Below are positions 1 through 57,895 of a DNA stretch of 64,000 nt, one piece after another. Position numbers and translations under genes: made by a program. Where the stretch lies: positions 31,180,917 to 31,244,916 of the forward strand of contig JARFYF010000022.1 of NCBI GenBank assembly GCA_030265395.1, in the 5' to 3' direction. Source of the stretch: Rhina ancylostomus. Its lineage: Eukaryota. Position 1 is the first letter of the stretch. Each line of letters begins with the position of its first letter. Below the pieces are notes generated by a model. It was not told the origin of the DNA and did no database searches. It saw only the letters and a program-made list of their open reading frames with translations.

Positions 1-829
1 AAATGCAGCTAAAAGGGAGAATGAGAAGAACCAAAATAAACTGGAGGGCACAGTTCTTAAAGGGTAAGAGAACAGAGAGCTGCGGATGTACATCAGAGTA
101 GTTGAATGTCGCCAGGCAGGGTGAGAAGTGGTTTAAAAAAAACTTCAGTGATCTTGGTGTTTCTGAGTACTTCCGAAGCACTGAGTACAAAACAAGGGAG
201 TTGCAACAGTCCTGATCTGGCCTCCACGCTTTAGGTAGGATGTAAAAAGCTCTAAAAAAATCTCTTCATGTCACAATGTTGATCCAGAGCAAACTCACAG
301 AGAACCCAAATGCGGCACACTGNNNNNNNNNNNNNNNNNNNNNNNNNNNNNNNNNNNNNNNNNNNNNNNNNNNNNNNNNNNNNNNNNNNNNNNNNNNNNN
401 NNNNNNNNNNNNNNNNNNNNNNTGGAATCCATGTGCTGGACAACAAGGCATTAATGGAGCCAAATTGAGGACCAGAACTCAGAACCATGACACTTCCAGG
501 GAAGAGATCTGGTTCCAGGGATATTCCTCATGTCACTTTTGAATTATTTTCAATTTTCTCCCCCTTCCCCAATGTGAACAGTAACTCTCCATCTCCTGTG
601 TCTAGCTTTGTCATGATTTTAACTCATCAGATCTCCTTACAACCTTCTCTGCTCCAAAGAGAGCAACTCCATCTTCTGTTCACTCACTTAACTTAAGTCC
701 CTCATTCCTGGAATCACCTTGGAAAATCTGTTCTGCACCTTCTCCAAAGCCTTTACATCCTCTTTAAAAGTGTGAGCATAGTTCCTGCTCACTGTGAGGC
801 AAAGGATTGATAGGTTACTAAAAACCAGA

Positions 830-965
830 ACAGAATAAAAGCTTGAGGGGCTCAGCAGGACAGGCAGCACGTATGGGGGGAAATGGACAGATGAAGGGTC
901 TAACCCAAAACATCAATGGTTTGGGTGTTGCTCCAGATTCCAACATCTACAGTCTTCCGTGTCTC
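830..965. mobile_element. Short Penelope-terminus-derived element
   Basis: ctcagcaggacaggcagca ... gatgaagggtctaacccaaaacatc ... gctccagattccaacatctacagtc; the same terminal motif recurs at ~3255-3355, 28845-29040 and elsewhere in the window. Confidence 0.55.
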
Positions 966-1139
966 CAGAATAAAAGCTTGCCTGCCCGCACAGTCAATGG
1001 CAACACTGCAAGTCCAAACTACTGCTTTCATTCTTAAGCCTTCCTTAGTCAGACACCACACTCATCTGGCTTACTCTAATTTTATCTTTCTCCTATCCAA
1101 CATTCTCTCCACAACCAGCCTGAAAGAGAACCTGGTGCA

Positions 1140-3040
1140 ATGATTGTATCCCATCCTAATTTATTTGAGTATAAGTGGCTCTGAATCTAGTCAAACCTGA
1201 GATGCACCTCTGTCTATGAAGAGGCCCGCTGCACGTGTGTTGGTTTGATGGGACAAGGATCCTTGGAACTGTTCTATATCAGTAACTGCACTTTCCCATG
1301 TGATCAACCTTCTGAGTGAAAAGGGAGTATTTGTGTGACTACCCTGCACTGCGACTATTAGTACAGATACTGACTTGTCCTGTATGCCAGAGATTTCTTG
1401 CTTCACTCCAGTCCAACGTGAAGGGTTTATTAATAGCGTAATGGTATTATGGTGAAATGGCAGTAAGGGGGTCAACGGAACAATTACATTATTATGTAGC
1501 ATGGTTTGGGTATGATATCTACCCTTATCAGAACAACTCATATAGTTTATGAATCAAGTTAACCAGTGACAAAAACTTCATAACACCCTAATGAATGCAG
1601 AAGTATAAACACATTTAGGAGATCCCACAATTGGGGGATATTGGTATGAATACTTAAATCCTTGGATTAGAACCTTGCCACATATTCTAATCACGGTGCA
1701 ATTGGTCGTTACTCACGGGTTGTCAATTGAGGCCTTTCTATAATGTCAAAAACAGAGACAGAAAACCTTGGCCAGATCCACTGCAAAGACAATTGCTAAG
1801 GACCAAAGGAAGAACCTGCTTCAGCCTAAAGGAAGAAAGATTAAAAGATTAACACTGTGAAAGGTGTTTTAAGGTAAAATAGTCATCAAACATTGAACTT
1901 TGTTTTGTCTTATCAGACTTATTGACTCTTCACATGTAGAGAAAGGAGTGTACTGTGTAACCACAACAGTAAAATCTCTTACCTTTGGAAATTATCTGAC
2001 ATGCACAATTATGCACCTAACATTTTATATTGTGCCTACTTAGGTAGAATTGATAGGATACAGAATCCTTCAAAGAGCATTGATATATTTAACTAATTGC
2101 CAGATGTAAACATGGAAAAACACGTTAGCAAATTTAGCTCCGCTATTGACTTGGCTGAAACTGAAGTCCAGGGTAAAATAACCTTAGTTATCTTGATGTC
2201 ACCCAGCATGTATTATGGAAATAAAAATTAAATGGGGGAAGACATGCAAAGCACCATATCTACACCATAGTGACACCAGTCATGGTACTGGTGGAAGATA
2301 ATTGAGATAAATCCCTGGATAAAAGCTGTGTCCCATGTACTGGTTGTGATGCAATCAATCACTGTAATCTGCTGCTTCCATTAGTGAGAGAGAAATGAAG
2401 GCAGAAAAAGCAGCAGATGAAATTAATGCACAAAGTTTTGGTTCAGCAGGAATGCATAAAGGTGGTTAGAAGTGACTGTTGCCACTGAAAGGTCAGGTCA
2501 TGAGCCACTTGGTGGCAGATTCTTGTCATGAATCCTGTAGCAAGAATGCATTTAACTCATGATAATCCAACATTGGCTAAGAATCGATCAAAATTTCTAT
2601 CCCAGCATGTTATAATTAACCAAGGGATTTTTAATGAACATAAAATAGCATGTGAGATTGTAAGAAATGAGCCGTGTTTCCTTCCTTGAACTCCTGTGCT
2701 GTGGCCGTCTGCGTGACAAACTGATCAATAGTGAGGTAGCAATCTTGGTTCCACCAAGTTCAGATTCATCCCCAAAACCTTTGGAAATGTGACTGCTCAA
2801 ATTGGTTAGAAACTGAGCACATTTCTCATCATTTCTCATCATATCTCTCTTCTATGATCATGGTTGAGGCAGAAAACAGGATGTACTTCCCTTGAGACTT
2901 ACAGCAAACAAAAGAGAGTAAGGTAAAGGTGGTACAGTTCAAGGGGTCACTGGGGGTGGTGGAGGTTTCACATCATTCAGAGTGTTGCAGCTGTAACTTT
3001 GTACTACAAAATGAGAATTTGGGGCAAACATTAACAACCT
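1140..3040 (+). mobile_element. Decayed array of three env-like / membrane glycoprotein modules (putative ERV/LTR-element 3' region)
   Basis: Internal protein-level similarity: EKGVxCVTT at 1318-1343 and 1939-1965; NPWIRTLPHILITVQ at 1657-1701 vs NPWIKAVSHVLVVMQ at 2310-2354; WYWWK at 2283 vs WGWWR at 2951. Intronless, with many stops and frameshifts. Family identity is inferred. Confidence 0.55.
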
Positions 3041-3239
3041 GGTAGAAGTTGCAGACAAGGTTGGTCCCCTGTACACATGGGAACAGATGCCTTCAAGTGA
3101 TCATTCTGATGAGTTCAGTTTGAAATCATCTGGTGTTAAAGAGAGCTGTACATGTGAGTAATATTTCAATTAAAAGGGCAGCTTACAAGAAATTAAGTTA
3201 GAGTGACCGCCTACACAGACAGGAATAAATTCCATTGAG

Positions 3240-3355
3240 CGACGCACATCGACTATCCCTCTGCCTCCACGGATGTTGTCTGACCCGTTGAGGTCCTCTT
3301 GCAGTTTGTTATTTTTGCTCCAGATTCCAGCATCTGCAGTCTCTTGTGTCTTCAG
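3240..3355 (+). mobile_element. Penelope-terminus-derived fragment
   Basis: gatgttgtctgacccgttgag...gctccagattccagcatctgcagtctcttgtgtct, shared with 28960-29040. Confidence 0.55.
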
Positions 3356-3705
3356 CTTCCTTTGAATGATCACGAGAGTGAGTTAGGTTCAGAGTACGAG
3401 TTAGAGAAAAGTACTTGTGAGATAGATTACTATTTAATTCGTGAAAACTCATGAGGGTACAGAAATCATATTGGTCCATAGCATTTTGTTGTATTTTATA
3501 CCACATAATCTTTGTGAATTTCTTGTAATATCAAATATTAAATTACTTGCAGTATTTGAGTCTATTTTCTTTGTAGTATGTTCTCAATCTTAAGAAATTT
3601 TCAGAATAGTTCTGGGTTGTTCTGTTCTGTCTAATTTTATCAAATTTTTTGAACAAAAAAATTGGTCAAAATGAACTGATGATCTTAATCAAGACCAAAA
3701 TTATA

Positions 3706-3835
3706 AGTAATAGAGTCATACAGTATAGAAACAAGCCCTTTGGCCACAGTGGTCTATGCCGACCAAGATGCCCACCCAAGCTAGTTCCGTTTGCCAGCAT
3801 TTGGCTGATAACCTTCCAAACCCTTCCTATCCATG
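3706..3835 (-). mobile_element. CR1/HE1-type 3' tail fragment
   Basis: tagagtcatacagtatagaaacaagcccttt..., the reverse complement of the CR1/V-SINE 3' end seen elsewhere in the window. Confidence 0.6.
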
Positions 3836-4589
3836 TACATTTTCCCCTCTCAGGCCCAACATTATCACCACAACCAGTTGCAGAGCCTCACACTCCATTT
3901 AACAACCAAATCCTCACCAGGCCTGACAACCACTCCCTTTATCATTAACACAACATTGGTCTCGTGTTGTTTGTGGCCTGCTGTTCTTTATCTCCATTTC
4001 ATCTATCTCACTCTCCGTGCTCTCTGCTGCTAACTGCAGTACTCACAGTCTCCATGTTCTGTAACTATGCCCACAAGAGAGTGCAATTGGCATTTTTGTG
4101 TTCCGCTCGATTCACTCTGAATTGGTATGCAGCTCCCATTGCAGTTAATCACCGCTGGTCCATCTCTTGCACTTTATTCTTTCTTTTTTTGTTCATTGAC
4201 AAGCCGATCACCCTACGTTCCATCAGGGAGCTTGAGAAGTTTTGGTTCCCCTCGTTCCATGACAAATGCCACTGACGGAGCCACAACAACAATAGGGGAA
4301 GCAGGACTGGTGTGCTGTGTGACTGTGAAGGGCTCGAGAAAAATTGCTGCTGTTTGTCATTTGTGATGCTGTTAATAACTCTACGAGAAGTTGAGCATTT
4401 TTTTTTTCTGGAGTCAAATGTACAATGGCTTTAGCCTTTTCTATTTCTGACCTGGAGCCAAAACACCCCCCTTTAACCAGACATCTGACTTCAAGCTCTC
4501 CTCAGATCATCACATGGATACTGCTCTTAGTGCAGAATCTAATTGACAGGGAGCAGCATCTTAGAACTGCTTTCCTCAAGCAACCCCAC

Positions 4590-4845
4590 ACTACGACCAC
4601 GTGGGTTTCCTCTAGGTGCTCCAGTTTCCCCCCACATCTCAAAGATGAGCAGATTGGTAAGTTATTTGGTCATTGTAAATTGCACCTCGTATGCAGATGA
4701 GTGGTAGAATTTGGGGGGTGGGTGGTTGATGAGAATATGAGGAGCACAATAAATAGGATTAATGTTGGATTAGTGTGAATGAGTGGTTGATGATTGGTGT
4801 AGATTCGGTGGGCCGTAGGGCCCGTTTCTGTGCTGTCTCTCTCTC
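4590..4845 (+). mobile_element. V-SINE (HE1-like), 5'-truncated
   Basis: V-domain gtgggtttcctctaggtgctccagtttccccccacatctcaaaga and CR1-derived tail tcggtgggccgtagggcccgtttctgtgctgt. Confidence 0.7.
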
Positions 4846-5394
4846 TGACACATCCTTAACTTCCCAGAAGTAGGATCACAGGCGTCATGCCCCTGCACCT
4901 GGTCATTATGTTGGCTGTTTCGGCTGCCTTCAGTTAACTTGGCAGCAGTTGCTCCACTATAGTTACTTACGTCATCATGTAATCCCTCTTAATCAATGTT
5001 ATAGTGGAAATCTTTGCACAAACTTGCACGTTGCTTGTTGTTAGACTATAATTAACAGCATCAGTGCAATTTAAGCAATTGCAAATTTCTTTTCTCAGGT
5101 TCACATTACTGATATATTCAGACACAGCATGCTTCAACTCTGATATTCATGGAAACTGTATGATTCTATTAAAATTCCAGGCTATTTTATTATCATTCCA
5201 TCTCATTTGCCACAAAGATTGCAGTGGATTGGGGCAAGGTGATTTGTTATCACAGTTTTCTGACTTTCCACCCCTACCCCACTCAGTTCTTCAAAGAGGA
5301 TAAGGCACAGTCTGTGGAGACAATGTATGTCCACAAATGCTTTGTGGTGGCCTTTTCCTTACAGTCAGTGTGTGCTATGTAACCACAATCAAAG

Positions 5395-5960
5395 ACATTT
5401 ACAGCACGAGGACATCGTTTGGCTCATTGTGTTAATGCCAAGCAAACATGAACATTAGTTTAATCCAAGCTCTCATTTCTCAATCCCTGGCCTTGTATTT
5501 ATAACTCTAAGTGTTGAGAGTTTCTGTCTTCATCAAATTTTAGGCAGCGAGTTTCAGATCCCCACTACTTGTTGAGTGAAAAATTTCCTCCCACAATCTA
5601 TCCAATCCTTCTTGCAATTAAATTAAATGCATGTCCCTTTGATCTTCTCTAGCAAAATGAATCATTCCTGTTCATCTTGCCTTTGCCTCAATTTTATACT
5701 TAACCCCAGCCTAAACAGCCTCTCCACATAGCTATAATTCTACAATCCAGGTAGCATTGTTCAGGCATCTCCTCTCCATACCTTCTCCAGTACTTACAGA
5801 ATTGTCCACCATTCTGGAACTGTAGGCAAACTTGTGCTTTATACAATTCATGCATGATTTCTAAGTCTTGTACAAAAAAGACAAGCATCCATAGGTCTTA
5901 TAACCCATCATATCTCACTCTCCTGGTACCTTCAGCGATCTGTGGACATGGAGTCTAACA
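5395..5960 (-). mobile_element. Old CR1 LINE 3' fragment
   Basis: Degenerate similarity to the reverse complement of the CR1 ORF2 C-terminus (minus ORF 5700-5888 has LYKAQVCLQFQ...QF). Confidence 0.55.
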
Positions 5961-7054
5961 TCCCAGTCCTGGTTCAGGGTTTCAACCTGAATTGGCAGCC
6001 ATCCCTTTGCCTCCACAGATGCCTCGAGCCACTGAGTTCCTCCAGCAATCTGTTGTTTTGCTCCAATATCAATGTTCCCCCTCTACCTCATAGCATACTA
6101 CCAATTACTGTACGTTTTCTTTATTTGACTGCCCCGGATGCAGTACTTCACACTTCAGATTTAATTCCACTTACCATTTTTGTATCAATCTAACCAGTCC
6201 ATTGAGACCTCCCAGCAGTGTAGAACTCCCTTCCTTCATCATCAACCACGTTGCTCTTTTGGTATTTTTGACAGATTTTTCAGCTATCATCCCTTAAATT
6301 ATATACACCATGAAAAGGGGCTTGATATGGAGTCCTGTAGTTGCCTCCAGTCACTAAAACTTCCTTCAGCCATCATCATTTCCTTTCTCTCATCCATTTG
6401 ATGTTGAATTTAAGATCAATTTTAATGCTGAACCTTAGAGTTTTCATCTTTTAATGCAGCTTGAAGACCAATTCAGGGAATGGAAATCAAACTAAAAGTT
6501 CAGCGAGGTCTCCATCAGTTGCATTTGTCTTGAAGGAAGTAGAGCTTGTATCTTGCATCTACTTGGTTGCATGCATTGAATGGCAAATGAATAAATGATG
6601 CAAGAGCAGAACCAGACTGAATAACTGCAGTCAGATGCACATAAAGTAGGAGAGAGCCAGCAGTGGAGGAGCAGCAGCAGAAGAAAATGCCCACTGTTTT
6701 TCTGGTGGGAAACTTTTGAGTGTGGTGGCTGCAGCTGAGAGAGCGAGGAACGTGCAGGCATGAGACTGTTGAGTTATGATGAAGATGAAGGAATGTCTGA
6801 ATATGGTAACTTTGGCACCTGTAGAAATTATGAGTCCATTTGCTGCTAATTGCAATAAGATTGGATGTTGGATCGGGAGAAAGTGGGAGAATTTTAGCAA
6901 GTGTTAATTTTGGCTAGTGGAAGCATTCTGCATTGTGTTATTCATTTAGAGGATGTGGGCATCACTGGAAAGTTGAATAATCTTGTTTCAGTTTTCCTTT
7001 TGACTCCTGCCACTTCCTCCTTCCTATCTGGACGTCCCTCCCTCCCCATCCAAA

Positions 7055-7240
7055 CATTATCAGAATTATACAGTACAGAAACAGGCCCTTCAGCCCACCA
7101 TATCTATACTGACCATCAAGTCCTATTTATACTAATCCCATTTACCAGCACTTGGATCGCAGCCTGTTATGCCTTGCTGATTCAAATGCTTGTCCAGATA
7201 CTTCTTAAATGTAGTGAGATAACCTGCCTCCTCCACCTTC
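7055..7240 (-). mobile_element. CR1/HE1-type 3' tail fragment
   Basis: tacagtacagaaacaggcccttcagcccacca... tail motif. Confidence 0.6.
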
Positions 7241-7679
7241 GCTGTCAATTAAGCAGCTCCATCAGATTACTAGAAGGAAATACAGGGTCAGTGCATGGCA
7301 ACTTAATACTTGAATTTGAGAGCCTAACCCTAACTACCTTCCCCTTAAACAGATCAGTACATCCTTCCTTATGTCGGTAACTGAAGTTGAACATATTTCC
7401 ACTGGGGACAGAGCAACAGATGAAACAACTCCAACCCGTTGCATTGCAATCTGCCTTGAGCTAATGGGTATTTCCATTCATCTTTTTAAATTAATTTTTG
7501 CATCCATGTTGCACAATATATGCACATCTTTAGTTAAAAAGGAAATGATCAGAGATCGTTTCATGCAGACCAATTTCTTTGCAAGTATGGCCTTCGCTTA
7601 TCCACACCTTGTAGAATGGAACTGACTTCTTACACATATCCTTCCTGTACCTACTGGACGTAAAGAGCAAAACCCAAGT

Positions 7680-7721
7680 CAGAAGATACAAAACCATGTG
7701 ATTTTTGAAACTGACTTTATT
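7680..7721 (-). terminator. Polyadenylation signal AATAAA with downstream GU/U-rich element
   Basis: Minus strand reads AATAAA (7721-7716) gtcagtttcaaaaatca catggttttgtatctt: CA ~17 nt downstream then a T/GT-rich tract; UGUA motif upstream near 7800. Confidence 0.7.
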
Positions 7722-10653
7722 AAAAACAAGTTATATATTTAACAGTTATGGAGTCACATTTAGTCCATTAGGATGTGGACAGGATTTGGATAGAAATACT
7801 GTACATCTTCATTTAGTTAAAGAAAAAACATGATCAGGACATACATTTGGTTCTTAGATCTAAAGGCGGTATAGATCAGTCAAGGCAACAATTTTGCTCC
7901 CCACTGTGCTTTTTTGTTTTGCTACAGTTACAATTAATACAGCATAGCATCAAGTGGCGGCAAAATGAAATGTCATCAAATTATGGTAACAGTGGGACCC
8001 TCCTGTCCCCTACACAGGTCATATGCAAAATTTCACCGTCTCCCATTTAAGAACTTCTTTGCAAAGGTTTATCAGAATCTCTGCAAATATTTTTCAATGA
8101 TAGTATAAGCAATACATAAAGGCAGTTTATCACTAATGTTTAAATTTCATTTTTCTCCTCAAAGAGTCCTAAATTCAACCTACTGTAGTGAAAATTAATG
8201 CTTTAGTTTCACATTCAGCTACTGTGAAGGTGGTTCTGTTGAAACTACCCATTTGAAACTATCGTCAGCTTGGGAAATCATGAACAATCATCTATTGATT
8301 TTAATGGTTATTTATTCATCTTCAGTAAGGGTGTAGATATGGAATTTTAAAATGTTAAGGACAAGTTTATTTACATTAAAATAGACATAAGCAGCTAAAT
8401 TTCATTTTCACCATATAAAAGTTATGTTTAATAAGTAATTAATGTGCACGCACTCAGCTAGAAAGGTTGAGCAAGGCACAAAAATGATTTTCTTTTAACA
8501 GGTGTCATATAGAAATGGTACAGCATCTCTTCTGCTGTTCAGGATCAACACTTTTGTCTGGATCTTACAGATCTATCAAAATTTATATTTTTTAACCTCT
8601 GTTGTCTTGAAGTTGAAAGTAGTGTATTTTCAGTGGAATATATGCAATATTTGAAAAAAGCAAACTTGGAAACCCAAGGTGATGTTCACACATTTGAGAC
8701 TGAAATTTGCTATGTTACAGATCTGAATTTGGTTCGTTAGAAACAACCTATTAAATAAATTGGCAACAGACACATGACATTTACCTGGTGCAAACTAAGC
8801 TGTGATATATGCAACAAATCAATATTTGGATAGAAGTGGGGGGAAAAAATCATCGAAAGAGCCGTAAACGTCTAAGATTAGAACAGTCGAAGCATTTAAG
8901 TAAATCATCCTGCTCTTGATGCAGTCAACAAACACTAAGTCAATAAGACATTATAAAGAAACAAAATACTACTTGGTCAGTTTGTGCAAATCTATCATTC
9001 AGAGGTACCCATGGTTGCAGAGGCAACAGCAAGTTTGCAGCAACTGTGGGCTTCTGCAGAGTTATTTACAGACTGGGGCAAATGTCAAGTCTGCCAGTTT
9101 TATGACCAACTTCAACTCTGCTGTGAGAGAAGACGAGTTGAATTGAGGAAATACAATCACCTTCCATTTTACTGCCTTGAACAATTCCACATTTCCAAGT
9201 TAACTGCCGAATCTTGCACATAATTCAGCAGCAAAAATGTTGCCTAGGAATGCAATCCAGTGGTGCATGAACTGAGTGTCATGTGCAGGGCATAGCTGAA
9301 AGGCAGATGGTTAAAGGAAGGTTCAATTAACTGTTCTGGTGCAGTGGAAGTGTTAGCAAACCTTCCCCAGAATTTTTGTATTTTCACCAAAAGTTTTCAC
9401 CAAACACACACATACACACTTCTCAGAAAAGTTTTTACCCCTATTATTTCCATTGCACTTCCCTACGTGGCTTGTCATCCTTCAGGAATTTTTTTTCTGG
9501 CAACATATTGATTTGAACCCCAGAATATCAGTCAAGCGACTGAAGTGTGTTAGAAAGTAAACTGTAGCTTATAAAATTACTACTCATGGTGCTTTTCTGC
9601 AAGAGTTATAGCAACAAAAAAATAACCACAGGTGAAACCGACTTGCATATTTGATGTGCCTTTTCAATTTTACAACTTATTTTTCTGCATGCATGTCTAG
9701 TACTGTAACAGTAAAGCAATAGAGAAAATATATCCCAAGAAATCCACGTTTCGTCCAATAGTTGAAATCTTTTGAATTTTGCTATTAGCAATACTTATTT
9801 ATGTGACTGCAAAGTCACAGATTCTCTCAACTCAGATTTTGGACCCAGGAAGAATAGTAAAGGATTTGCAATTCAATTCATAACTTCACTCTTATACTTT
9901 GGCATTCACTGTTCAGCTTCACCTTTCACACAATTGTTATCTCATGACCATGTCTGAGATACCTAATGGTTGAGCAAGCCTTCCCATGCACTCATTTTGT
10001 TCGCTTTTGAGTTATTACTTGTTATGTCTGCCTACAGGGTCATTTGTCTTGGATCTTCTTCAATGGCAAAACCCACAGAAAACACGGAAGCCACACCACC
10101 ACAAATGAAAGGTCTCCTTCACAGTGCATATACTCTACCTGTGTTTTAACAGATATTCCTTGGGGCAGTAACACTTGTATCCTTTTTGTTTTCATTTCCA
10201 CTAAAAGCAGCCCAGTGATATAAAGTTACAGCAATTAATCTCCTTGTGCCTGGTCTTACTTGTGCTGTTCCCTGGGAAATATTACATGTCTGAGTAAGCC
10301 AGTGAATTTAGCACCTTGAATTTAATTGAGAGTTAACAGAGAAAGGCATTGTTGCACACTGTAAATTGTTAAGTGCTTCTACAGTTTCTTTTGGCACACA
10401 CAATTTCCCACCATCCTGTCATCAGAGAAATTAAGATATTAAATGAAGGTGACATTAAGTGCATGCAACTGTATTTTTCGAGATTTTATCAAACTGATTG
10501 GTCCACTGGCGATGTGCATCAGCTGAAATTGCTGTTTGTCCACAGTTAGTCTTCTTTCAAGTAAATTGCAGGAGTCTGGTTGGATTTCTCTTTGCAAATT
10601 GTTCCACTTTTCACATACTTTGTGCAAAGCATGGTAGGGAGGGGAGTGGTCAG
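7698..10653 (-). other. PIK3C2A: PIK3C2A 3'UTR (~2.95 kb, predicted)
   Basis: AT-rich stretch with no recognisable TE between the stop codon and a canonical polyA signal; exact end is inferred. Confidence 0.65.
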
Positions 10654-10836
10654 TTACCCGCTGGTTGCAGCAGTCAATTTGTACCAGTTAATGGTTTCCT
10701 TGCTCAAGTCAAATTCCTTCAGAATTAACGTAATGCCACCAAGGTAAACATTTTCACGCAATGACTCTGCACTTAACACGCTGAGTTGCAATTCCCTCTG
10801 TTTGAGTGATTCTTTACTGTATCCACTGTACACCAA
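10654..10836 (-). CDS. PIK3C2A: PIK3C2A last coding exon: [60 protein letters not shown]
   Basis: cttatag|TTG acceptor; TAA at 10656-10654; closely matches the human C-terminus except for the last residues. Confidence 0.96.
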
Positions 10837-12072
10837 CTATAAGAGAAAAGATACATTGAACATGTTTCTATATTCTGAGATTGTGAGAGCTCCAAGTTAG
10901 CAGTGGAGGAATCTTACAAGATTACATGAATTTTCCCAATAAAGGTACTGCAGTATCAGCTGAAAACCTTCAATCATGTGTGCATAATTTTTTCTCCACA
11001 TTAGTCATTTATGATAATAACTCCCAGTGTGGGGAAGTGATCCCAGTACAGCCATAAGTAGATGTGCATGTTCAGTGTTATTTTGCAAAGCAGAGCAAGA
11101 CAGTCTGTTAGCTTTGTTGCAACTGGCCAGTGCTATGCTCCAGTAGATACCCCAGAGATCATTATTTGATACACGTTTTGAAATTCATGAAACAATAACT
11201 GTCTATTTAGACAATGTCTTTTGGCCAACTAAATAATTAAGATATTCTATAAACAGGGAGAAGGAATAGATAGGGGAATTGCCCAAGGGTGACTTAGAGT
11301 GACAATCCAAAGCTGTCCAGATGGAAGGGAATGGAACGCAACCCAAACTGTGGGATGTGTAATTAATATGTTCACATGGCTGGGTCAGTCTATACAGGTG
11401 CCTGCACTCTCCAACGTCTCTCTGGCCCTGGCCAAGAACTTAACTCGCCTCAAAAACAGAGAAGCACAAACTGATTTTTGAGTTGGTCTAAAAGCATTCT
11501 AACTCTTCACAGTGGAAAGGTCACAAAAGAGCTCCAGGGCTGAATGTTTCCTTAAGTAGACGAGCGAATATCACTACAAACTGGAGCTAGTAAGATTTCT
11601 TAAGGATGTAAAGCAACTGTTCTGTAATCTTTGATTTGGGAAAGAGTTGTTTGAACCACCAAGTGGTATTTGAAGCATATGGAAAAATGATTGGTATCAG
11701 TGATTATGAGGCAGTGGGATCAGAAAATCCCAATTGGTTTACTAACATTACAAAGGGAAGGAAAGCCTTTGCTTAATCTTTGGTTAAGTAAGTGCTCCAA
11801 CAAAGAATTACTCGGAAGCTAATATTTTCATCCCCATTGCACACTGGCATTGGCACACTGACAGGAGCTGCTGATCTTCATCTGTTTACAATGAGGGAAG
11901 ATATTCACAAGCTTTTGTGTCGGTCACTTGTCTCAATTAAGTGAAATTCTCCTCGCGCAGATTCACCCAAGATTCTGTATTTCTTCCTTTCAGAAATAGC
12001 ATTGCGATTACTGTTCTTCCAGCTTTAAGCACTTGCTCATAGGTCAAAAGGTAAACTTTCTAAAGGGGTTCA

Positions 12073-12258
<186 letters not shown>

Positions 12259-12556
12259 CTACAATTAAAATATTAATTTTAAAAAATCAAGCAAAATATT
12301 AAGTGTTTCATCATTAAAAACTTGGCTAAAATTATACAGCAAATGTTTACTATGATACTACACAGAGGTGTAGAGAAGGTGAAAAAGGAAGAAGGACCAA
12401 AGCAGGTAAGTGAAGGGTGAGAGAACAAATGAGAAAGGCTGAACTCCAATTTTAATTTGGTTACACTTAAGGGACACAGAAGCTAAAGTTCATGGTTGTA
12501 CATAAATCAAGGAAATGGGTCAGGGAGCCATAGCTTTGAGTGTAATTGTCACTTAC

Positions 12557-12666
12557 CAAGTCTCGTATGTGCATTACCATGATGAATAGTGTGCTGTTCC
12601 TGTATGAAATGGACAGTTTAACTTCTCCACCTACTTGACCCGAATTGGCTGATGGTGGAACTATTT
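12557..12666 (-). CDS. PIK3C2A: PIK3C2A exon (C-terminal C2): [36 protein letters not shown]
   Basis: tgcacag|AA ... TTG|gtaagt; 110 nt, phase 1-0; a second in-frame AG lies 6 nt downstream. Confidence 0.94.
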
Positions 12667-14609
12667 CTGTGCAGATACAAGTTCAAAAAATTTAATTACC
12701 CTTGGGAATTTACATAGTGAAGTAATGAATCATGAAACATTATCAATGGTTTCCACCCCAGACCATTTACTACTTTGACTTTGCTCCACTAAGAATGATA
12801 TTTTTAAATCTCTCTTTCTCAAGAGCCCAAAATGAGCCACACAAACTTGGAAAGCTTCAAATTATCTCAAACATGCTCAGCCTTGGTGGTAGGAGAGCAA
12901 AAACAGTGCTGCATCCTGGGGAAGTGTTGAGTGTGAAAGGATGTGCAAGAGAAAGATAGGGAAAAAGTCAGCTACAGGTCCTGCTCCTGATCACTTGAGT
13001 AACCTACCCCAGATCGTGCTTGTGACAATATTGCTTAACTCTGGGACATGATCAGCTATATTGCACATGGAAAAAGGAAACTGTGAACACCTTACTGTTT
13101 GGATAGACGGAGTTAATACATTTAACAAAGTGCAGTTGAACTCTCAGTGATTATTAAATGGTCAATTCAATGCTCAGCGTGGAAATCAGGACCTGGGTAA
13201 TGAAGGAATTAATAGGTTAGGCCCAAAAATAAAAAATCTGGAAAAATGTCACAATTCTATATCTAATTTCCATTTCTGCTCTCTTTCACTGCATTTCTCT
13301 AAACAACAATATAGCTTATGGGAAAGTATCTTTCCGGTTGCTATTTAATACTAGTTAGCAAGTTCTATTTAAGCTCTGTGGTTACCAGCTCTCGAGTTTG
13401 AAGTGGAGATGACAGGATAAAGAGTTGGGCCAGGATGTCAAACAGAGACTTAAGACTATGTTGGGTTTTAAAAGAAATAGGTTGCCCTAATGCTCACATT
13501 ACGGATGTCCTCTCAGCTGCTCAGCATACAGCATGTTGTCTTCCTGTCTGTACAAATTAAAAATAGTCAGGACTTCCGTTAGGGGAAAAAAAGAACGTGG
13601 AGAAAGTTTCCCTTAAAGGCAAACAACTTTCCCTTAAATAAAATGTTTCACATTTTGCTTTACTCTCTCCAGAGTGTAAGAGCACTGTGCCTAAGTACTA
13701 TATAATATAGTTCTATAATAGTATTTAATAAACATAATTCTGCTGCAGTTATTTTTCTCCCTTTGGCCTGCAGGTTTCTGATGATAGATAAAAAAATAAA
13801 ATCAGAGGGAATAACATTCAAGTCTGGAAGCCTGTTCATGAACTGAGCAATGCCTGGGTGGGAGTAGAGGTGGTGGTTTAGGAATTTTCAGTCAATTCTA
13901 AGGCTCCATTGCAGATTGCTCATATGCCAAGTGAAGCACGATTCATCAAAAATTTTGTAGTGCACAATTAATAATGATGCCAACCACCAATCAAGTTTGG
14001 TCACAAGATTACAAAATTGAATCTTGGCAATTTAGCCACAGACAGTCCTAATTATTGTCGGATTTATTGGCCTACACTTTCATGTCTGTCATGCAATGGG
14101 GTCTTTGAAAATCCAATTTCCTTATTTAGGACAAAAAGCTGCTCAAAATCAGAATATCCCAGAGCAAACTGTAAAACTAAATAATTGTGATCTAACAATG
14201 CTGGTTAAGGTTTTCACAATCAAAAGCTTGATGAAGCAGCCACATTACTAAGAATACAGCTGACTGTTGCAATTTCTGGACATAAAGAAAAAACTTAAGA
14301 AGCGAGACTGATATCAACCTGAACAACTAAATCAGGATTGGTGGCTTGGTCAGAAGTTTCACTTACAAGAAACTTGCACATCTGCACCTTTTCATACAAA
14401 TCTAGATTGCAATTTGGATTTCGCAAAGCATCAAGTTGTTTCACAGGTTGCAACACATTAGTGGATATGGTAACAAGTATGGATTTTTTAAAAAAAAACA
14501 CGCCTCAACAAGTTGATAAATACTGCATTCACAAGATGAATATATGCCACTATCACAAGTAAACTGCAAAATGATACATGCCAGCCAAACAAAATTTCAT
14601 TTGCAATAC

Positions 14610-14691
14610 CTGCAGGCTTGACTATTCCATCTATTCCTTCAGCCTTTTCATCCCGGCCTAGTGGGTGGAAAAAGGTGTAGACGAGATCACA
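14610..14691 (-). CDS. PIK3C2A: PIK3C2A exon: CDLVYTFFHPLGRDEKAEGIDGIVKPA(E)
   Basis: tttcag|TGT ... G|gtattg; 82 nt, phase 0-1. Confidence 0.94.
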
Positions 14692-14976
14692 CTGAAAATT
14701 AACAACAACAACAAAAGTTTTTATTGTTTACTTTGATAGCTTTTTCAAGTATATAGTTCAGAACAAAAGTGCATGTGGCCATTTTAGGAGCAAGGTAGTG
14801 CATGGGGTGAAAAAACACCATTCCTGATGTGTTTCTTTTAAACCAGGCCAGTCATGGCGAGAGGACCATACATCCTGGTCAGTGTGCATCCAAGAATGGA
14901 GAAAACAGAATGTGTCCAGGCAGGTGTTGGGTTTCGAAGAGTCTTAATTTTGATTCCAATTCCACTCAGCACTTAC

Positions 14977-15094
14977 CTCAGCTACTTCAGTCGAGCTATT
15001 CATCAGACATTGCACATAATTGTTCAGCTCCACCTTCCGCTTGGAGGCCACATCCTTAATGTGAGTTCGGCCGAGGACCACTTTGTTGGGGAAG
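14977..15094 (-). CDS. PIK3C2A: PIK3C2A exon (PX): [39 protein letters not shown]
   Basis: ttccag|C ... GAG|gtaagt; 118 nt, phase 2-0. Confidence 0.97.
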
Positions 15095-15179
15095 CTGGAA
15101 AAACAATAGCTTTTGTCTAAATTGCCGTAAACAAAAAGTTCATAACTTGAAGTATTTCTTATGTGTATTCAACACCCAC

Positions 15180-15304
15180 CCTGGAAGCTTCCACAGTGGA
15201 AAGAGGATGCCTAGTTTGTTGTGGAGCTCTTGGAATTCATCAAACGTTCTGAAGATGAACATTGGTGCAATCTGTCCTTCCCGCAATATTCTCACCACAT
15301 ATAT
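15180..15304 (-). CDS. PIK3C2A: PIK3C2A exon (PX): [41 protein letters not shown](G)
   Basis: tgcacag|ATA ... GG|gtgggt; 125 nt, phase 0-2; followed by an 85-nt intron. Confidence 0.97.
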
Positions 15305-17058
15305 CTGTGCAGTAAGAGTGACAGCCATTAAGACATCTCTTGCCTGAGCTACCATAAACTTTATTGTCAAANNNNNNNNNNNNNNNNNNNNNNNNNNNNN
15401 NNNNNNNNNNNNNNNNNNNNNNNNNNNNNNNNNNNNNNNNNNNNNNNNNNNNNNNNNNNNNNNNNNNNNNNATTGTCAAAAAGCATCTAGAATGCAGACA
15501 TAGAGGTTCTGGCCAAACAAGAATTCCTTGTTAACCAAGTTAATGAAGACAACAGTAGGTGTAAACCTAAATCAAACCTAATCATCCCTTAAATCAACAT
15601 CCACACAATTGCAATTCTTCTGGCAAGTCACTCAAAAGCAAGAGGGAAGCTCAAGTTCATGTCAATCTTCTTTCTTTGACTGGAGAAATTTATAGTAGTT
15701 CAGATGCTGGCAGTTTCAGCACTCTCCAATTAGCTCAGCACAACTAAGGGGTTTTATTTTAGCATCTTCTTTTGTATGTGGTTCAATGCAACATCACATG
15801 ATGCAGTTTTGCAAGAAGAATCCAACTGGAATTCTGAGAGCTTCTTTCATTTAAAATAATAGGGCATAATATTTCTTGCATTTTGAATATAACCTGCAGT
15901 GAGGCATTGCGCTAAATTTCTTTAAAAATAACCATGATTTTAATAATATAAATAATATATGCTTTGATGAGGTAACTGACACACTAAGTCTACTGACAAA
16001 CAGAACCCCAACCTTCAATATATCAGTGCTGCATGGAAGCTATTCCCAAGTTAAACTCATTGTTTGATATCCAGATATGGCTTTTTGTCTGCTTCCCCTC
16101 AATCTTCAGAACTTTAATCTTGAGATTATATTTAAAGCAAATGCATTAATTATTAAAGGCATTAATTACTATCACAATATCATTGAAATTTGGGAGTGAG
16201 GGAGGTTGTAGGGTGAGGTCAGTGACTGCTGAAAGTGGAGGATGAGTATCTAACTTTGTAAGTCGGAAAACGTAGAGGCATTGTGGAGTTGATCTCAGGC
16301 TTTGCTGAATCTTGGTGGCCAGTCATGACGTTCACTTCTGACTCAATACTTCATTGGCAGCCCTGGTGATTTGTGCAGCAAGTTCTTTCTTAGTAACTTC
16401 AGAACAGGATTTTCTTGCTCACCAAAATGGGACAAATTCTCTCATTGGAGTTGAAAGCAAGGTCATTTTGGGAGTCGACTCTGGAATATATACCCCTCCA
16501 AATATTCTTAACTGAGAACCGAAACTTCAACAAATGAAGAAATGCTTCATGAGTAGCCTCTTTTGGCCAGGATATTATTCATTCTGTGGTCTTTAAGCAA
16601 AGGAATAATTACAAAAGGAATTGGTCTTCAACTACTTTTATACTGGCTGCAAAACATCGTTCTAGTGGAAATGATCCTGTTGTTGGAAAGCTTATTGTCG
16701 TGTTATGGTCCTCAGCCAACTATATAACATTTTTCCCCCATCCCCTTTTCAGTGCAATCACTTCCAACTGGTTGTGCAGCCCAAAGCAATCCTCCATCTC
16801 CACAAGGAAAGCGTTTCCTTTTCCTGATGCTCCCAATACTGCCTCACATCAGGAAATGTATGGGGAAATCACAGGCACATCCCCTTCCTTCCATCACTCT
16901 CGTCTAGAACCTGCACTTAAGATAAAACATGACAACATTTTGTCTTCGCAGAACTGAATGATAGAAGTGGATTGACTGCAACTTGGACTAGCACGAGTGT
17001 TAGGCACTCGTGTGCATTTGTGGAATCTGTAGTGTCAGAGAAGCTGCCTTTTACTTAC

Positions 17059-19263: not shown

Positions 19264-21198
19264 CTTAAGGATTAGGAAGCAAAAATCAGGCAGGGCTCTT
19301 GGAGAATTACACAGTAGCTAGGAAGGAGCTCAAGAAGGGACTTAGGAGAGCTAGAAGGGGACATGAGAAGGCCTTGGTGTGTAGAGTTAGGGAAAACCCC
19401 AAGGCGTTCTACACATACATGAAGAACAGGAGGATGACTAGAGTGAGGGTAGGACATCTGAGGAATAAAGGGGGCAAACATGTGCCTTGAGGCAGAGGAG
19501 GTAGGGGAGGTCCTGAATGAATACTTTGCTTCAGTGTTCACTAGGGAGAGGGACTATGATGAATGTGAGGTTGGCGTAGAACAGGCTAATGTGCTGGAGC
19601 TTGTTGAAGTTAAGAAAGAGGTAGCGTTGGAGCTTCTGAAAAACATTAGGATAGATAAGTACCCAGGGCCAGACGTGATATATCCCAAATTACTACGGGA
19701 AGTGAGGGAAGAGTTCGCTGGGGGGGTTGACAATGATATTTGTGTTCTCCCTGGCCATAGGAGTGATACTGGAGGATTGCAAATGTTGTCCACGTTCAAG
19801 AAAGGTAACAGGGATAATCTTGGGAATTGAAGACGAGCGAGTCTTACGTCAGTGGTAGGCAAGTTATTGGAGGGGATTCTTAGGGACAGGATTTACAAGC
19901 ATTTGGAGAAACAAAGTCTTATCAGCAGGGCTTTGAGAGGGGCAGGTCATGCCTCACAAAATTGAGTTTTTCGAGGAGGTGACAAAACAAATTGATGAAG
20001 GTAGAGTGATGGATGTGCTGTATATGGAGTTTACTAAAGTGTTTGACAAGGTTCCCCATGGTAGGCCCATGCAGAAAGTCATGAGACATGGGATCCATGG
20101 AGAGTTGGCTGCGTGGATTTGGAATTGGTTTGCCCGCAGAAGGCAGAGGGTGGTAGCAGATGGAGAGAATTCTGCCTGGAGGACGGTAACTTGTGGTGTT
20201 CCGCAGGGATCTGTTCTGGGACCCCTGCTCTTTATGATTTTTATAGATGACTTGGTTGAGGAAGTGGAAGGGTGGGTCAGTAAGTTTGTAGATGACATGA
20301 AGGTTGGAGGTGTTGTGAGTAGTGTAGAAGGTTGTTGCAGGTTACAATGGGATATATACAGGATGTAGAGTTGGGTGGAGAAATGGCAGATGGAGTTCAA
20401 TCTGGAAAAGTGTGAAGTTATACATTTTGGAAGAATGGACTTGAAGGTGGAGTACAAGGTTAATGGCAGGGTTCTTAGCAGTGTGGAGGAACAGAGAGAT
20501 AGTGGGATCCAAGTACATAGATCCCTCAAGGTTGCCGCACAAGTTGATAGGGTGGTTAAGATGGCCTTCATTAACCAGGGGATTGAGATCAAGAGCCGCG
20601 AGGTAAAACTCTGGTTAGGCCACACTTGGAGTATTGTGTTCAGTTCTGGTCACCTCATTATAGTAAGGATGTGGAAGCATGTCGAAGCTTTAGAGACTGT
20701 GTGGAGGAGATTTACCAGAATGCTGCCTGGATTGGAGAGCATGTCTTCTGAGGAAAGGTTGAGTGATTTAGGGCTTCTCTCTTTGGAGTGACGCAGGATG
20801 AGAGGCAGCTTGATAGAGGCGAAGAAGATTATGAGGGGCATAGATAGAGTGGACAGCCAGCACCTTTTCCCCAGGGTGGCAATGGCCAATGTGAGAGGTC
20901 ATTAGTTTAAGGTGAGCAGAAGAAAGTTTAGGGGAAATGTCAGAGGTAGGTGTTTTTCTTTTAAATACACAGAGCATGGTTGGTGCCTGGAATACACGGC
21001 TGGGGGTAGTGGTAGGGATTGATACAATAGGGAAACTTATAAGACTCTTAGCTAGGCACATGAATGTAAGAAAAAAGGAGGGTTATGGGCTGTGTAGGAG
21101 GGAAGTGTTAGATTGATCAGGGAGTAGGTGTTTACATAGGTCGGCACAACATTGTGGGTTGAAGGGCCAATACTGTGCTGTACTGTTCTATGCTCTAT
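19264..21198 (+). mobile_element. CR1 LINE, 5'-truncated (~1.9 kb), RT and C-terminus with frameshifts and stops
   Basis: ORF fragments 19299-20791 give ENPKAFYTY, PGPDVIYPKLLRE, FTKVFDKVPH, GVPQGSVLGPLLFMIFIDDL, SKFVDD (FADD-like), WQMEFNLEKCEV; ends in a short TGTTCTA-like repeat tail. Confidence 0.93.
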
Positions 21199-21257
21199 AC
21201 CGAACAGACAAAGAAAAATCCAGACTGGAGTTAAGAATAACATTAAGAGGAAATTTA

Positions 21258-26575: not shown

Positions 26576-26812
26576 TATAGAACAATAGAGGCCCTTCGGC
26601 CCACCATGTTGTGCCACCCATCAAACCACACCTCACACTTTCTAACCCCTTCCTCCCACGTATCCCTCTATCCCACATTCCTCCATATGCCTATCCATCA
26701 ACCTCTTGAACCTGTCCAACGTATCCGCCTCCACCACCACCCCAGGCAGTGCATTCCATGCACCAACCACTCTGGATGAAAAACCTCCCTCTGACATCTC
26801 CCCTGAACTTCC
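26576..26812 (-). mobile_element. CR1 3' fragment
   Basis: Similar to 53854-54110 (ccaccaccaccccaggcagtgcattccatgcaccaaccactct). Confidence 0.8.
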
Positions 26813-27170
26813 TAGGAGTTCACTTATAACTTATAAGGAGTGATTCCATGAATTAAAGAATGCTAATATTAAAAAACTTTGCTCAGTGCTGTAAAGGATT
26901 TTAGGTGCTCCATTCACATGGCTTATATAGTGCACACTTCAAACACCATGGAAACACGGTGTAGAGTTTTATGGTACAGTCTGAAATAAGATTGTACCTT
27001 CCTGGCCATTATTCTTTCCAACAAGCTTTCAGCAATTTCTTTAACAGATTGAAAGTCCAGATTGAAAGAAATTTGTATCACATCCTTTGCAGAACTCCAG
27101 TATGGAAAATCTGTGCAAAAGAATTTACTTAGAGTTCCAAATTTCTTTCAATCTGGATTTTTAATCTGTT

Positions 27171-27602
27171 AAACATAGAACATAGAACATTACAGCACAG
27201 TACAGGCCCTTGGGCCTACAATGTTGTGCCAACATTTTATCCTGCTCTATAAGATCTATCTAACCCTTTCCTCCCACATAGCCCTCCATTTTTCTATCAT
27301 TCATGTGTCTATCTAAGAGTCTCTTAAATGTCCCTAATGTATCTTCCCCCACCACCTCTGACAGCTGTGCATTCCACACACCCACCACTCTCTGTGTAAA
27401 AGACTTACCCCTGACATCCCCCTTATACCTTCCTCCAATCACCTTAAAATTATGCCCCCTCGTGTGAGCCATTTTCGCCCTGCGGAAACGTCTCTGACTG
27501 TCCACTCGATCTATGCCTCCTACCATCTTGTGCACCTCTATCAAGTCACCTCTCATCCTCCTTCACTCCAAAGAGAAAAGCCCTAGCTCACTCAACCTAT
27601 CC
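27171..27602 (-). mobile_element. CR1 3' fragment, relatively young
   Basis: Minus ORF 27260-27556 MRGDLIEVHKMVGGIDRVDSQR...RGHNFKVIGGRYKGDVRGKSFTQRVV; (CATAGAA)n tail. Confidence 0.9.
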
Positions 27603-28844: not shown

Positions 28845-29040
28845 CAATCTACTGGAAGAACTCAGCAGGTCGAACAGCATCTGTGGGAAGAAAGGAATTG
28901 TCGACATTTTGGATTACATAGTTTAACCCGTAACATTGACAATTTGATTCCCCACCCCAGATGCTGCTCGATCCGCCAAATTCCTCCAGTATTGTTTGTT
29001 GCTCCAGATTCCAGCATCTGTTGATTTTTGTGTCTCCAAA
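28845..29040. mobile_element. Palindromic Penelope-terminus-derived element
   Basis: Inverted arms actggaagaactcagcaggtcgaacagcatctg (28851-28883) and cagatgctgctcgatccgccaaattcctccagt (~28958-28990). Confidence 0.65.
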
Positions 29041-29413
29041 TTAAAAAGAAATATAATTTCAAAAGTTCTGCTTTTACAACTACAAATTTTAAGTAAAATA
29101 ATATGCAAGCTTCTTGGCAGATACAGGTAAAACTATTTGCTAAAGAGAATTAATCACGTAAATCAAAATGCCAATACATGAACTCAATTTAAAAATTCAA
29201 AGCAATTCAAAACATGCCAAAGCTGCTAAGATGACAAATCTAAAGATTAATACTTGTAACAACTGAACAATTAAGTACTGCAGGATGTAACGAGACTAAA
29301 ACTACCAATTTCAGAGCTTTGTGTTGTTACTATCATCAAAGATGGCCCAATAATGAGAATATAAAACAATGCTTAAACTGCATTTCAATGAAGTTTTGAT
29401 AGGTTGTGGATAC

Positions 29414-41294: not shown

Positions 41295-41447
41295 CTAAAT
41301 TGAAAAACAAGGTTAGAGTCTGCTGCCTTGTGGCATCTGTTCTACACAAAGAAAGAGAGAATATAAAACACACAATGATACAGAAAGTAAACTAGATCTA
41401 CTGCTGCAATATAAAATATTTTTTTGTTTCAATGATAAAAGCAGAAG

Positions 41448-42155
41448 ACTCAACATCAGGAAGACCAAGGAATTGATTGTGGACTTCAGGAAGGGAAAGT
41501 CAGGAGAACTCACAACAGTCGTCACTGAGGAGTCAGTGGTGGAAAAGGTGAGCAGCTTCAAGTTCCTGGGTGTCAACATCTCAGAGGATCTATCCTGGGC
41601 CCAACACATTGATGCAATCACGAAGAAGACACTCCAGCGGCTCTACTTCATTAGGAGTTTGAGGAGATGTCACCAAAGACTCTTGCAAGTTTCTATAAAT
41701 GTACGTGGAGAGCATTCTGACTCTCTGCCTGGTATAGAGGCTCCAATGAGCAGGATTGCAAAGAGGCTGCAGAGGGTTGTAAACTCAACCAGCTCCATCA
41801 TAGGCACAACCCTCCCCGCCATGGAGGACATCTTCAAGAGGTGGTATGTCAAGGCAGCAGCATCCATCATTAAGGGCCCTCACCATCTTGGACATGCCCT
41901 CTTCTCATTACTACCATCAGGGAAGAGGTACAGGAGCCTGAAGACCCACACTCAGTTTAGGAACAGTTTCCTCCCCTCCGCTATCAGATTTCTGAATGGT
42001 CCATGAACACTACCTCATTATTCCTCTTTTGCACTATTTATCTATCTATTTATTTATTTGTAACTTATTGTAACTTTTGTGTCTTGCACTGTACTGCTGC
42101 CACAAAACAACACATTTCACAACATATGTCAGTGATAATAAACTTGATTCTGATT
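41448..42155 (+). mobile_element. Rex1/Babar LINE, 5'-truncated
   Basis: ORF 41473-42006 and the codons just upstream: KTKELIVDFRK...FKFLGVNISEDLSWAQHI...QRLYFIRSLRR...LPSGKRYRSL...FRNSFLPSAIRFLN; short GATTCT-like repeat tail. Confidence 0.9.
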
Positions 42156-53851: not shown

Positions 53852-54320
53852 ACCATAGAACAATACAGCACAATACAGGCCCTTCAGCCCTCCTGGTGCC
53901 AACCTTTAAACAACACCTAAGACTAACTCACCCCTTCCTCCCACATATCCCCCTATTTTAAATTCCTCCATGTGCTTATCTAACCATCTCTTGAACTTGA
54001 CCAATATATCTACCTCCACCACCACCCCAGGCAGCGCATTCCATGCACCAACCACTCTCTGGGTAAAAAACCTCCCTCTGATATCTCCCTTGAACTTCCC
54101 ACCCATTACTTTNNNNNNNNNNNNNNNNNNNNNNNNNNNNNNNNNNNNNNNNNNNNNNNNNNNNNNNNNNNNNNNNNNNNNNNNNNNNNNNNNNNNNNNN
54201 NNNNNNNNNNNNAGAACTAATCCTTGTGGGACATCGCTAGTCACAGCCCTCTGATCTGAATGCACTCCCTCCACCAAACCCTCTGCCTTCTACAGGCTAG
54301 CCAATTCTAAATCCACACCA
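53852..54320 (-). mobile_element. CR1 3' fragment spanning a 100-N gap
   Basis: Minus ORF 53906-54277: VTSDVPQG ... KVMGGKFKGDIRGRFFTQRVVGAWNALP. Confidence 0.88.
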
Positions 54321-57592: not shown

Positions 57593-57789
57593 CTGTATTT
57601 GAGAACACATTATAATCAGTTTCCAAAGTCAGATGTGAATTGAAATGCATGAGACTCTAAGGAACTGAACATTGTACAATGTAATGCATGACAATTTCGC
57701 TTCACTTGGAAGATAATTAAGTTACTCATTCAATTTCACATTTATCTCAATGGTCTGGATCTTTTGCTTAAAAGCTGGCAGTTCCACAT

Positions 57790-57895
57790 GGTTTTGAATA
57801 TGTAAAGGGTTTTTTTTTAAACAGGGTTTTGACTATGTAAAGGGTTTTGACTATTTACAGGGTTTTGACTATTTACAGGGTTTTGACTATGTAAT
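57790..57895 (+). repeat. 18-bp minisatellite, ~6 copies, unit GGTTTTGACTAT(G/T)TA(A/C)AG
   Basis: Units start at 57790, 57808 (degenerate), 57825, 57843, 57861, 57879. Confidence 0.9.

Follow-up and report, generated by a model that had tools for sequence, protein, structure and literature searches.

A decayed tandem array of membrane-protein paralogues downstream of PIK3C2A in Rhina ancylostomus, a candidate 3' end of an env-bearing LTR retroelement

Retroviruses and env-carrying retrotransposons normally carry one env. Among the described systems closest to the locus presented here, lokiretroviruses are fish-type retroelements whose Env is of the paramyxo/pneumovirus F type; in the available parts of their description, each element has one env, unlike the tandem modules described below, and cartilaginous fish are not among the named hosts, though two are among the genomes listed (PMC7947760). 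Loki elements are recognised by a reverse transcriptase of the Loki clade, by a gag-pol with tether plus RNase H, and by an Env with signal peptide, RXKR, fusion peptide and coiled coil. In foamy virus Env and in F proteins, the C-terminus consists of domain II, HRB and a membrane anchor, according to the accessible text of PMC11468914, and gamma-type retroviral TM is common in sharks and rays, according to the accessible parts of two surveys (10.1101/2021.11.23.469661, PMC12813294). Tandem genes at the 3' end of a fish retrovirus are described in the consulted sections on AciFLERV, a fish foamy-like ERV with acc1a, acc1b and acc2 of 234-253 codons, the first two being paralogous and the third different, a precedent for duplication in a fish retrovirus (PMC5512871). 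In teleost foamy-like ERVs, accessory genes reportedly lack TM motifs (PMC5210030).

In the window, i.e. the whole 64,000-nt stretch of Rhina ancylostomus DNA that was analysed, we found a decayed, intronless tandem array of paralogous single-pass membrane-protein genes on the plus strand, about 7.6 kb from the stop of PIK3C2A, which lies opposite, on the minus strand. The original prediction had placed three env-like modules downstream of this gene, and the location was borne out by its last coding exon. The features needed to follow the argument are:

926-975, strand not applicable: dispersed short repeat upstream of the array, matching 28997-29046, 3315-3355 and 6001-6065
1143-1260, plus strand: probable 5' extension of copy 1, a Cys-containing piece (RCTSVYEEARCTC) without counterpart before copies 2 or 3
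1261-1860, plus strand: copy 1, with Cys/beta-rich blocks, linker, Trp/NPWI block, hydrophobic anchor and basic tail
1866-2480, plus strand: copy 2, with the block order of copy 1, beginning directly after the copy 1 tail
2560-3034, plus strand: probable copy 3, the most decayed, with a C-x7-C-F-x-P block (2642-2686) and a W-x5-H-I-I block (2930-2995)
10654-10836, minus strand: last coding exon of PIK3C2A, E 4.6e-26 to the PI3K-C2 alpha C2 domain (PDB 2b3r)
15143-15370, minus strand: PX exon of PIK3C2A, E 0.0057

The end exons of PIK3C2A, corresponding to its PX and C2 domains, were located on the minus strand at ~15140-15370, 14944-15168, 12467-12682, 12070-12258 and 10654-10836, and the sequence is interrupted at 15372-15471 by an assembly gap, a short flank of which is duplicated. 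Dispersed repeats flank the array on both sides (926-975 and 3255-3355), both with matches elsewhere in the window and the downstream one containing a relative of the upstream one; they may be SINEs. Rfam on 1-16000 and ARAGORN returned nothing. Elsewhere in the window, decayed pieces of non-LTR retrotransposons, presumably CR1-like, were observed at 19462-21227, 26576-27602 and 53854-54316, with mutual matches of 72-82% and an RVT_1 match at 19937-20365 (E 5.5e-14). A 229-codon frame at 41317-42006 (plus strand) has a weak ALKBH8_N match (E 2e-5), and we assume that it closes a LINE ORF2 and does not belong to a host gene. The window also holds a 134-nt imperfect inverted self-match at 27040-27173 (69%, E 6e-10), possibly a hairpin-type small element, and a minisatellite of period 18 with ~6 copies at 57786-57894.

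The units of the array share one order: Cys/beta-rich blocks come first, a linker of ~80-90 codons separates them from a Trp block, and a hydrophobic stretch then leads into the tail, which is basic in copy 1. They follow each other head to tail, without spacer, at a period of ~620-650 nt. No intron is needed at the observed block spacing. The motifs from which the modules had originally been recognised are all present, on the plus strand and about where they had been placed. In copy 1, plus-strand translation gives NCSISVT at 1267, EKGV at 1318, CVTT at 1332, LTCPV at 1370 and CFTP at 1399, followed by the Trp/NPWI block at 1639-1707. While these motif places agree with a first copy spanning ~1140-1790, its end does not, because the basic tail runs on to a stop at 1858. 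Three N-glycosylation sequons lie in the main frame of this copy (1267, 1456 and 1474). Copy 2 contains EKGVYCVTT at 1939, LTC at 1996, a Trp/NPWI block at 2286-2360 and ICCF at 2367, and copy 3 contains IACEIVRNEPCFLP at 2645 and WGWWRFHII at 2951, with a stop at 3032. The conserved Trp follows the LTC/IAC block, counted from its first Cys, at 287, 314 and 300 nt, compared with about 256, 281 and 300 nt in the original prediction.

Every copy is broken, in agreement with the original prediction. Against a stop background of 6.2%, copy 1 shows three frame changes at ~1327-1398 and 5 stops in the 114 codons of 1399-1740, copy 2 shows frame changes near 2105 and 2385 with 4 stops in 159 codons, and copy 3 has 9 stops in 182 codons. 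Copies 1 and 2 each have a single hydrophobic anchor lying between a Trp-rich segment and a tail, as in class I C-termini (19-residue hydropathies of 1.74 and 1.79), and the predicted Cys-rich part is present there too, whereas the anchor of copy 3 is weak (0.73). The heptad-like stretch of the prediction has no measurable periodicity, its moment being reached by 467, 761, 781 and 1480 of 2000 shuffles; a heptad before the anchor could have been erased by decay. Neither a furin motif nor R-x-[KR]-R occurs in the plus frames of 961-3200; the region of env with such a site would be upstream of the truncation. ISD and CX6CC are absent from all three plus frames of the same interval, and copies 2 and 3 have no clear start or signal peptide (hydropathy 0.99 and 0.44).

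Upstream of the first unit, the piece at 1143-1260, which we read as coding and as a probable 5' extension of copy 1, is not similar to the starts of copies 2 or 3 (297/751 and 266/578 nulls) and is cut off on its upstream side by dispersed repeats. Since copy 2 has no room for such a piece, copy 1 looks like the C-terminal end of a longer, 5'-truncated gene. Near its other end lies a 13-nt purine run (1828-1840, plus strand), the sole run of at least 12 nt in 1100-3700, which resembles a polypurine tract, yet is followed by copy 2 and no evident LTR. The minus-strand, 120-codon stop-free ORF opposite copy 1 (1191-1553), which matched nothing in Pfam, we regard as a shadow.

Copies 1 and 2 are true paralogues, and this pair aligns far above shuffled controls at the protein level. 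Their frameshift-aware protein alignment scores 64, compared with maxima of 47 among shuffles (0/100) and 44 among window pieces (0/87), and none of 172 further controls reached this score in either direction. A profile built from the three copy-1 blocks scores 112 on copy 2 with a runner-up of 58, and the reverse profile from copy-2 blocks scores 98 on copy 1 with a runner-up of 56 (428 bins in each case). The NPWI block of each copy finds that of the other as its best match, both among 127,864 six-frame positions and, with 34 of 54 nt identical, at the DNA level in the window; the copy 2 blocks follow those of copy 1 at 622-653 nt. Overall residue identity is low (34/137 aligned), nucleotide identity reaches ~52-66% in gapped alignments, and the DNA comparison alone is marginal, its score being reached by 10/300 shuffles and 1/87 window pieces. 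The likeness is confined to the Cys and Trp blocks; the linkers, the tails and the stretch before EKGV are, each alone, at background (189/459, 98/789 and 90/791 nulls).

This pattern bears on when the copies diverged. In codon-blind DNA alignments, with frames assigned by us, the second codon position was the best conserved in all three informative settings (47/57 vs 37/55 and 33/58, chi-square p 0.012; 48/76 vs 38/72 and 38/76, p 0.229; 56/89 vs 38/88 and 46/88, p 0.031), while two further settings gave no usable alignment. Different codons are used for 8 of the 14 residues shared in the blocks, a count biased by the choice of blocks on protein likeness. Because second positions are the best conserved, the signal, though modest, suggests that the copies diverged under protein constraint, before decay. 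It thereby counts against a scenario in which a single env-like 3' fragment was inserted and then tandem-duplicated in the host genome, its copies decaying neutrally. Such a duplication would suit the head-to-tail units with their steady period and lack of spacer, the identities given above, which roughly fit long neutral decay, and the lack of start signals in copies 2 and 3. It fits poorly with a likeness restricted to the Cys and Trp blocks and with the few stops of copy 2, which represent little decay for such divergence, and we consider it unlikely.

The number of copies is less certain than their kinship: the predicted trio stands firmly for copies 1 and 2, and the third is probably genuine. 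Copy 3 fails every unconstrained test. Its frameshift-aware alignment is not significant (score reached by 24/100 and 9/100 shuffles); the block-profile scan (428 bins) places it at ranks 6 and 15 when copy 1 is used, at 383 and 415 when copy 2 is used, and at 73-181 with both; its scores are reached by 96, 6 and 14 of 172 controls, the two better ones stemming from another spot (2510-2570); and hhalign gives a probability of 0.6%. Its G.xCVTT block is not recognisable (1365/1497 nulls). These failures, together with the weak anchor, speak for a simple pair next to a chance or unrelated sequence, which would fit our preferred explanation in a reduced form. By contrast, two blocks were found at the expected period in a position-constrained test covering 600-680 nt after the copy 2 blocks, a range derived from the spacing between copies 1 and 2. 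The Cys block, at +649 from copy 2, was equalled by 1 of 1496 nulls with copy-1 blocks, 33 with both and 477 with copy 2, and the Trp/His block, at +635, by 3 of 1496, 54 and 574, respectively. Scored with copy 1, each block falls within the top 0.3% of nulls and the two combine to a Fisher p of 5e-5, or 3e-4 including the missing block; the joint profile gives 0.007 and 0.026. The test is passed through copy-1 blocks only, copy 2 blocks giving no support, and our confidence in copy 3 is held at probable because both the blocks and the range were picked after the sequence had been seen. For copy 3 taken by itself, a chance resemblance appears somewhat unlikely.

Around this third unit, the start of its interval (2510-2536, plus strand) reads WWQILVMNP, an echo of the copy 2 Trp block WWKIIEINP reached by 6/172 controls, which could have arisen by chance or by partial duplication, or could be a copy-3 leader. 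Past copy 3, acidic, Ser/Glu-rich and stop-free stretches lie at 3015-3158 and ~3350-3450 (plus strand), split by the repeat 3255-3355; weakly like the copy 2 tail (28/774 nulls), they are possibly a tail or another decayed gene.

Family searches gave no name to the modules. Ten and 11 frame read-throughs of the array, in short and decayed pieces, matched no Pfam family, with only weak matches overall (E 0.05-0.17); NCBIfam yielded no family match and PDB sequences chance-level matches only. Against 1.84 billion representatives, phmmer with the copy-1 piece 1399-1860, a query leaving out the more informative frame 1261-1740, retained 0 at E 0.001. A word-seeded search with one copy-1 piece produced 108 candidates and 0 at E 10, those with two pairwise alignments 11 candidates each and no family, and an Atlas search with one 48-residue copy-2 piece a best value of 0.78 and no family. 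Since exact words or strong scores were required, these empty searches are weak evidence of absence; the neighbouring 60-residue host exon, by contrast, was found at E 1e-26.

This contrast also bears on a cellular origin, with the modules as dead copies of a small membrane-protein family, either as processed pseudogenes or as members of a tandem family with single exons. Vertebrates do have small single-exon genes arranged in tandem, and a type I membrane layout is not virus-specific. The modules nevertheless matched nothing in Pfam, NCBIfam, PDB or the representatives, whereas the host exon was found, and no poly(A) run lies between the units; we hold the cellular origin to be improbable.

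The retroelement context expected by the original prediction, with gag-pol upstream and flanking LTRs, did not appear in the stretches scanned: 18 flanking and opposite-strand frames (1-1144 and 3001-5102) gave 0 meaningful matches to gag, pol or integrase, and 423-15371 contains no LTR pair or LTR-length direct repeat. The 5' part of any element, including a 5' LTR, would lie before base 1. The proposed identity as env of an LTR element thus retains the membrane-protein layout in its favour and has no database match, gag, pol or LTR beside it; the env label would draw on the architecture and on certain teleost env-like proteins of F type, which presumably end with the same motif order as the modules.

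The same lack of LTR, gag or pol nearby would be expected if the modules, as genes for glycoproteins or membrane proteins, came from a virus or mobile element of another kind, such as a non-retroviral EVE or a large DNA element. The module architecture is common to many viral glycoproteins, and vertebrate genomes contain such elements, including fish paramyxovirus-like ones in the accessible part of PMC11521997. No viral glycoprotein was, however, matched in Pfam or PDB. Such viruses are not known to us to carry a fusion-protein tail in tandem paralogous copies, and we judge this source quite unlikely, if slightly more credible than a cellular family. Three independent insertions of one element's 3' end would find a possible polypurine tract in the purine run near the copy 1 end, but the units share a strand and abut with no LTR or spacer between them, and no further module copy exists in the remaining 61 kb of the window, which makes this history scarcely credible.

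Compared with the closest described Env proteins, the modules share with that of Loki elements a beta region rich in Cys, an anchor at the C-terminus and a basic tail, within the available description (PMC7947760). Motif searches and by-eye reading nevertheless found PWI, CVTT, CFTP, YCVT, LTCP and SHVL absent from the Loki Env C-termini in the supplement text compared, with its 23 'Env protein' mentions, and one Loki Env consensus examined whole ends differently, without a Trp block before the anchor, so that the suggested lokiretrovirus link was not supported by this material (PMC7947760). The short, decayed pieces gave no Pfam match to Fusion_gly PF00523, for which an intact Loki Env itself reaches only 2e-7 in the same partial source (PMC7947760). 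By inference only, the modules would fit the C-terminus of F-type proteins, in which a beta-rich domain is followed by a linker/HRB region and then the anchor, as given in the consulted part of PMC11468914; they have no sequence match to F-type proteins, and the short copies would lack fusion peptide and HRA. Gamma-type TM and the modules share a Cys block, a membrane anchor and a tail at the env 3' end. A gamma-type assignment was rejected on the lack of ISD and CX6CC in 961-3200 and of any TLV_coat-type match in Pfam.

The AciFLERV acc genes come after env and are not env-derived, unlike the proposed modules, in the text available, and the module blocks are absent from the acc1a/acc1b/acc2 portions compared by eye and motif, which led us to reject a relationship (PMC5512871). 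Also set aside were Troyka, unrelated in the part consulted (PMC12440569), elephant-shark CmiERV lineage I, whose env is gamma-type by eye in the accessible material (PMC4422223), and a Sebastes env supplement with 0 motif matches. The available portions of 10.1101/2023.10.26.564294, 10.1101/2021.11.23.469661, PMC9040795, PMC11521997, 10.1101/2024.03.25.586437, PMC10699275 and PMC12813294 do not describe such an arrangement. In the literature covered, which included few subscription papers and not Repbase, we found no description of an element whose env-derived paralogues stand in tandem.

Taken together, we give a probability of about one half to the reading in which the array is what remains of the 3' part of a dead LTR retroelement or ERV: a longer env-like gene truncated at its 5' side, plus one or two short paralogues derived from env. 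It is favoured because of the paralogy of copies 1 and 2, the regular period, the second-position bias and the likeness confined to Cys and Trp blocks, as well as the anchors, sequons, basic tail, intronless spacing and absence of a cellular family. It is weakened because no family was named, because gag, pol, integrase, LTR, furin, CX6CC, ISD and heptad signals were not found, because copies 2 and 3 have no clear start or signal peptide and the codon-phase signal is modest, and because copy 3 is unsupported by copy 2 blocks. Under this retroelement reading, the element would have carried one longer envelope-type gene, of which the C-terminal part alone would survive as copy 1, its 5' side having been lost to later repeats. 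One, probably two, short paralogues of ~200 codons would have arisen head to tail by duplication of the env C-terminal part, would have diverged under protein constraint inside the replicating element, and all copies would have decayed after insertion. In the active element, the short copies may have been single-pass surface glycoproteins, with a Cys/beta block, linker, Trp block, anchor and tail, in the role of accessory partner, decoy or receptor blocker and not of fusogen, because they have no room for a fusion peptide or an N-terminal helix. Today, the locus most likely makes nothing.

More tentatively, the array may represent a new lineage of enveloped LTR retroelements in cartilaginous fish, in which a full F-type env is followed by two short paralogues of its C-terminus, each maintained separately and serving as an accessory surface glycoprotein. 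A single dead locus without family assignment limits the present value of this proposal. Surveys seeded with known Env need intact frames, according to the accessible text of PMC12813294. If true, the finding would point to an env family missed by such surveys, and an element keeping short env-derived genes would reveal a route to accessory proteins through env duplication.
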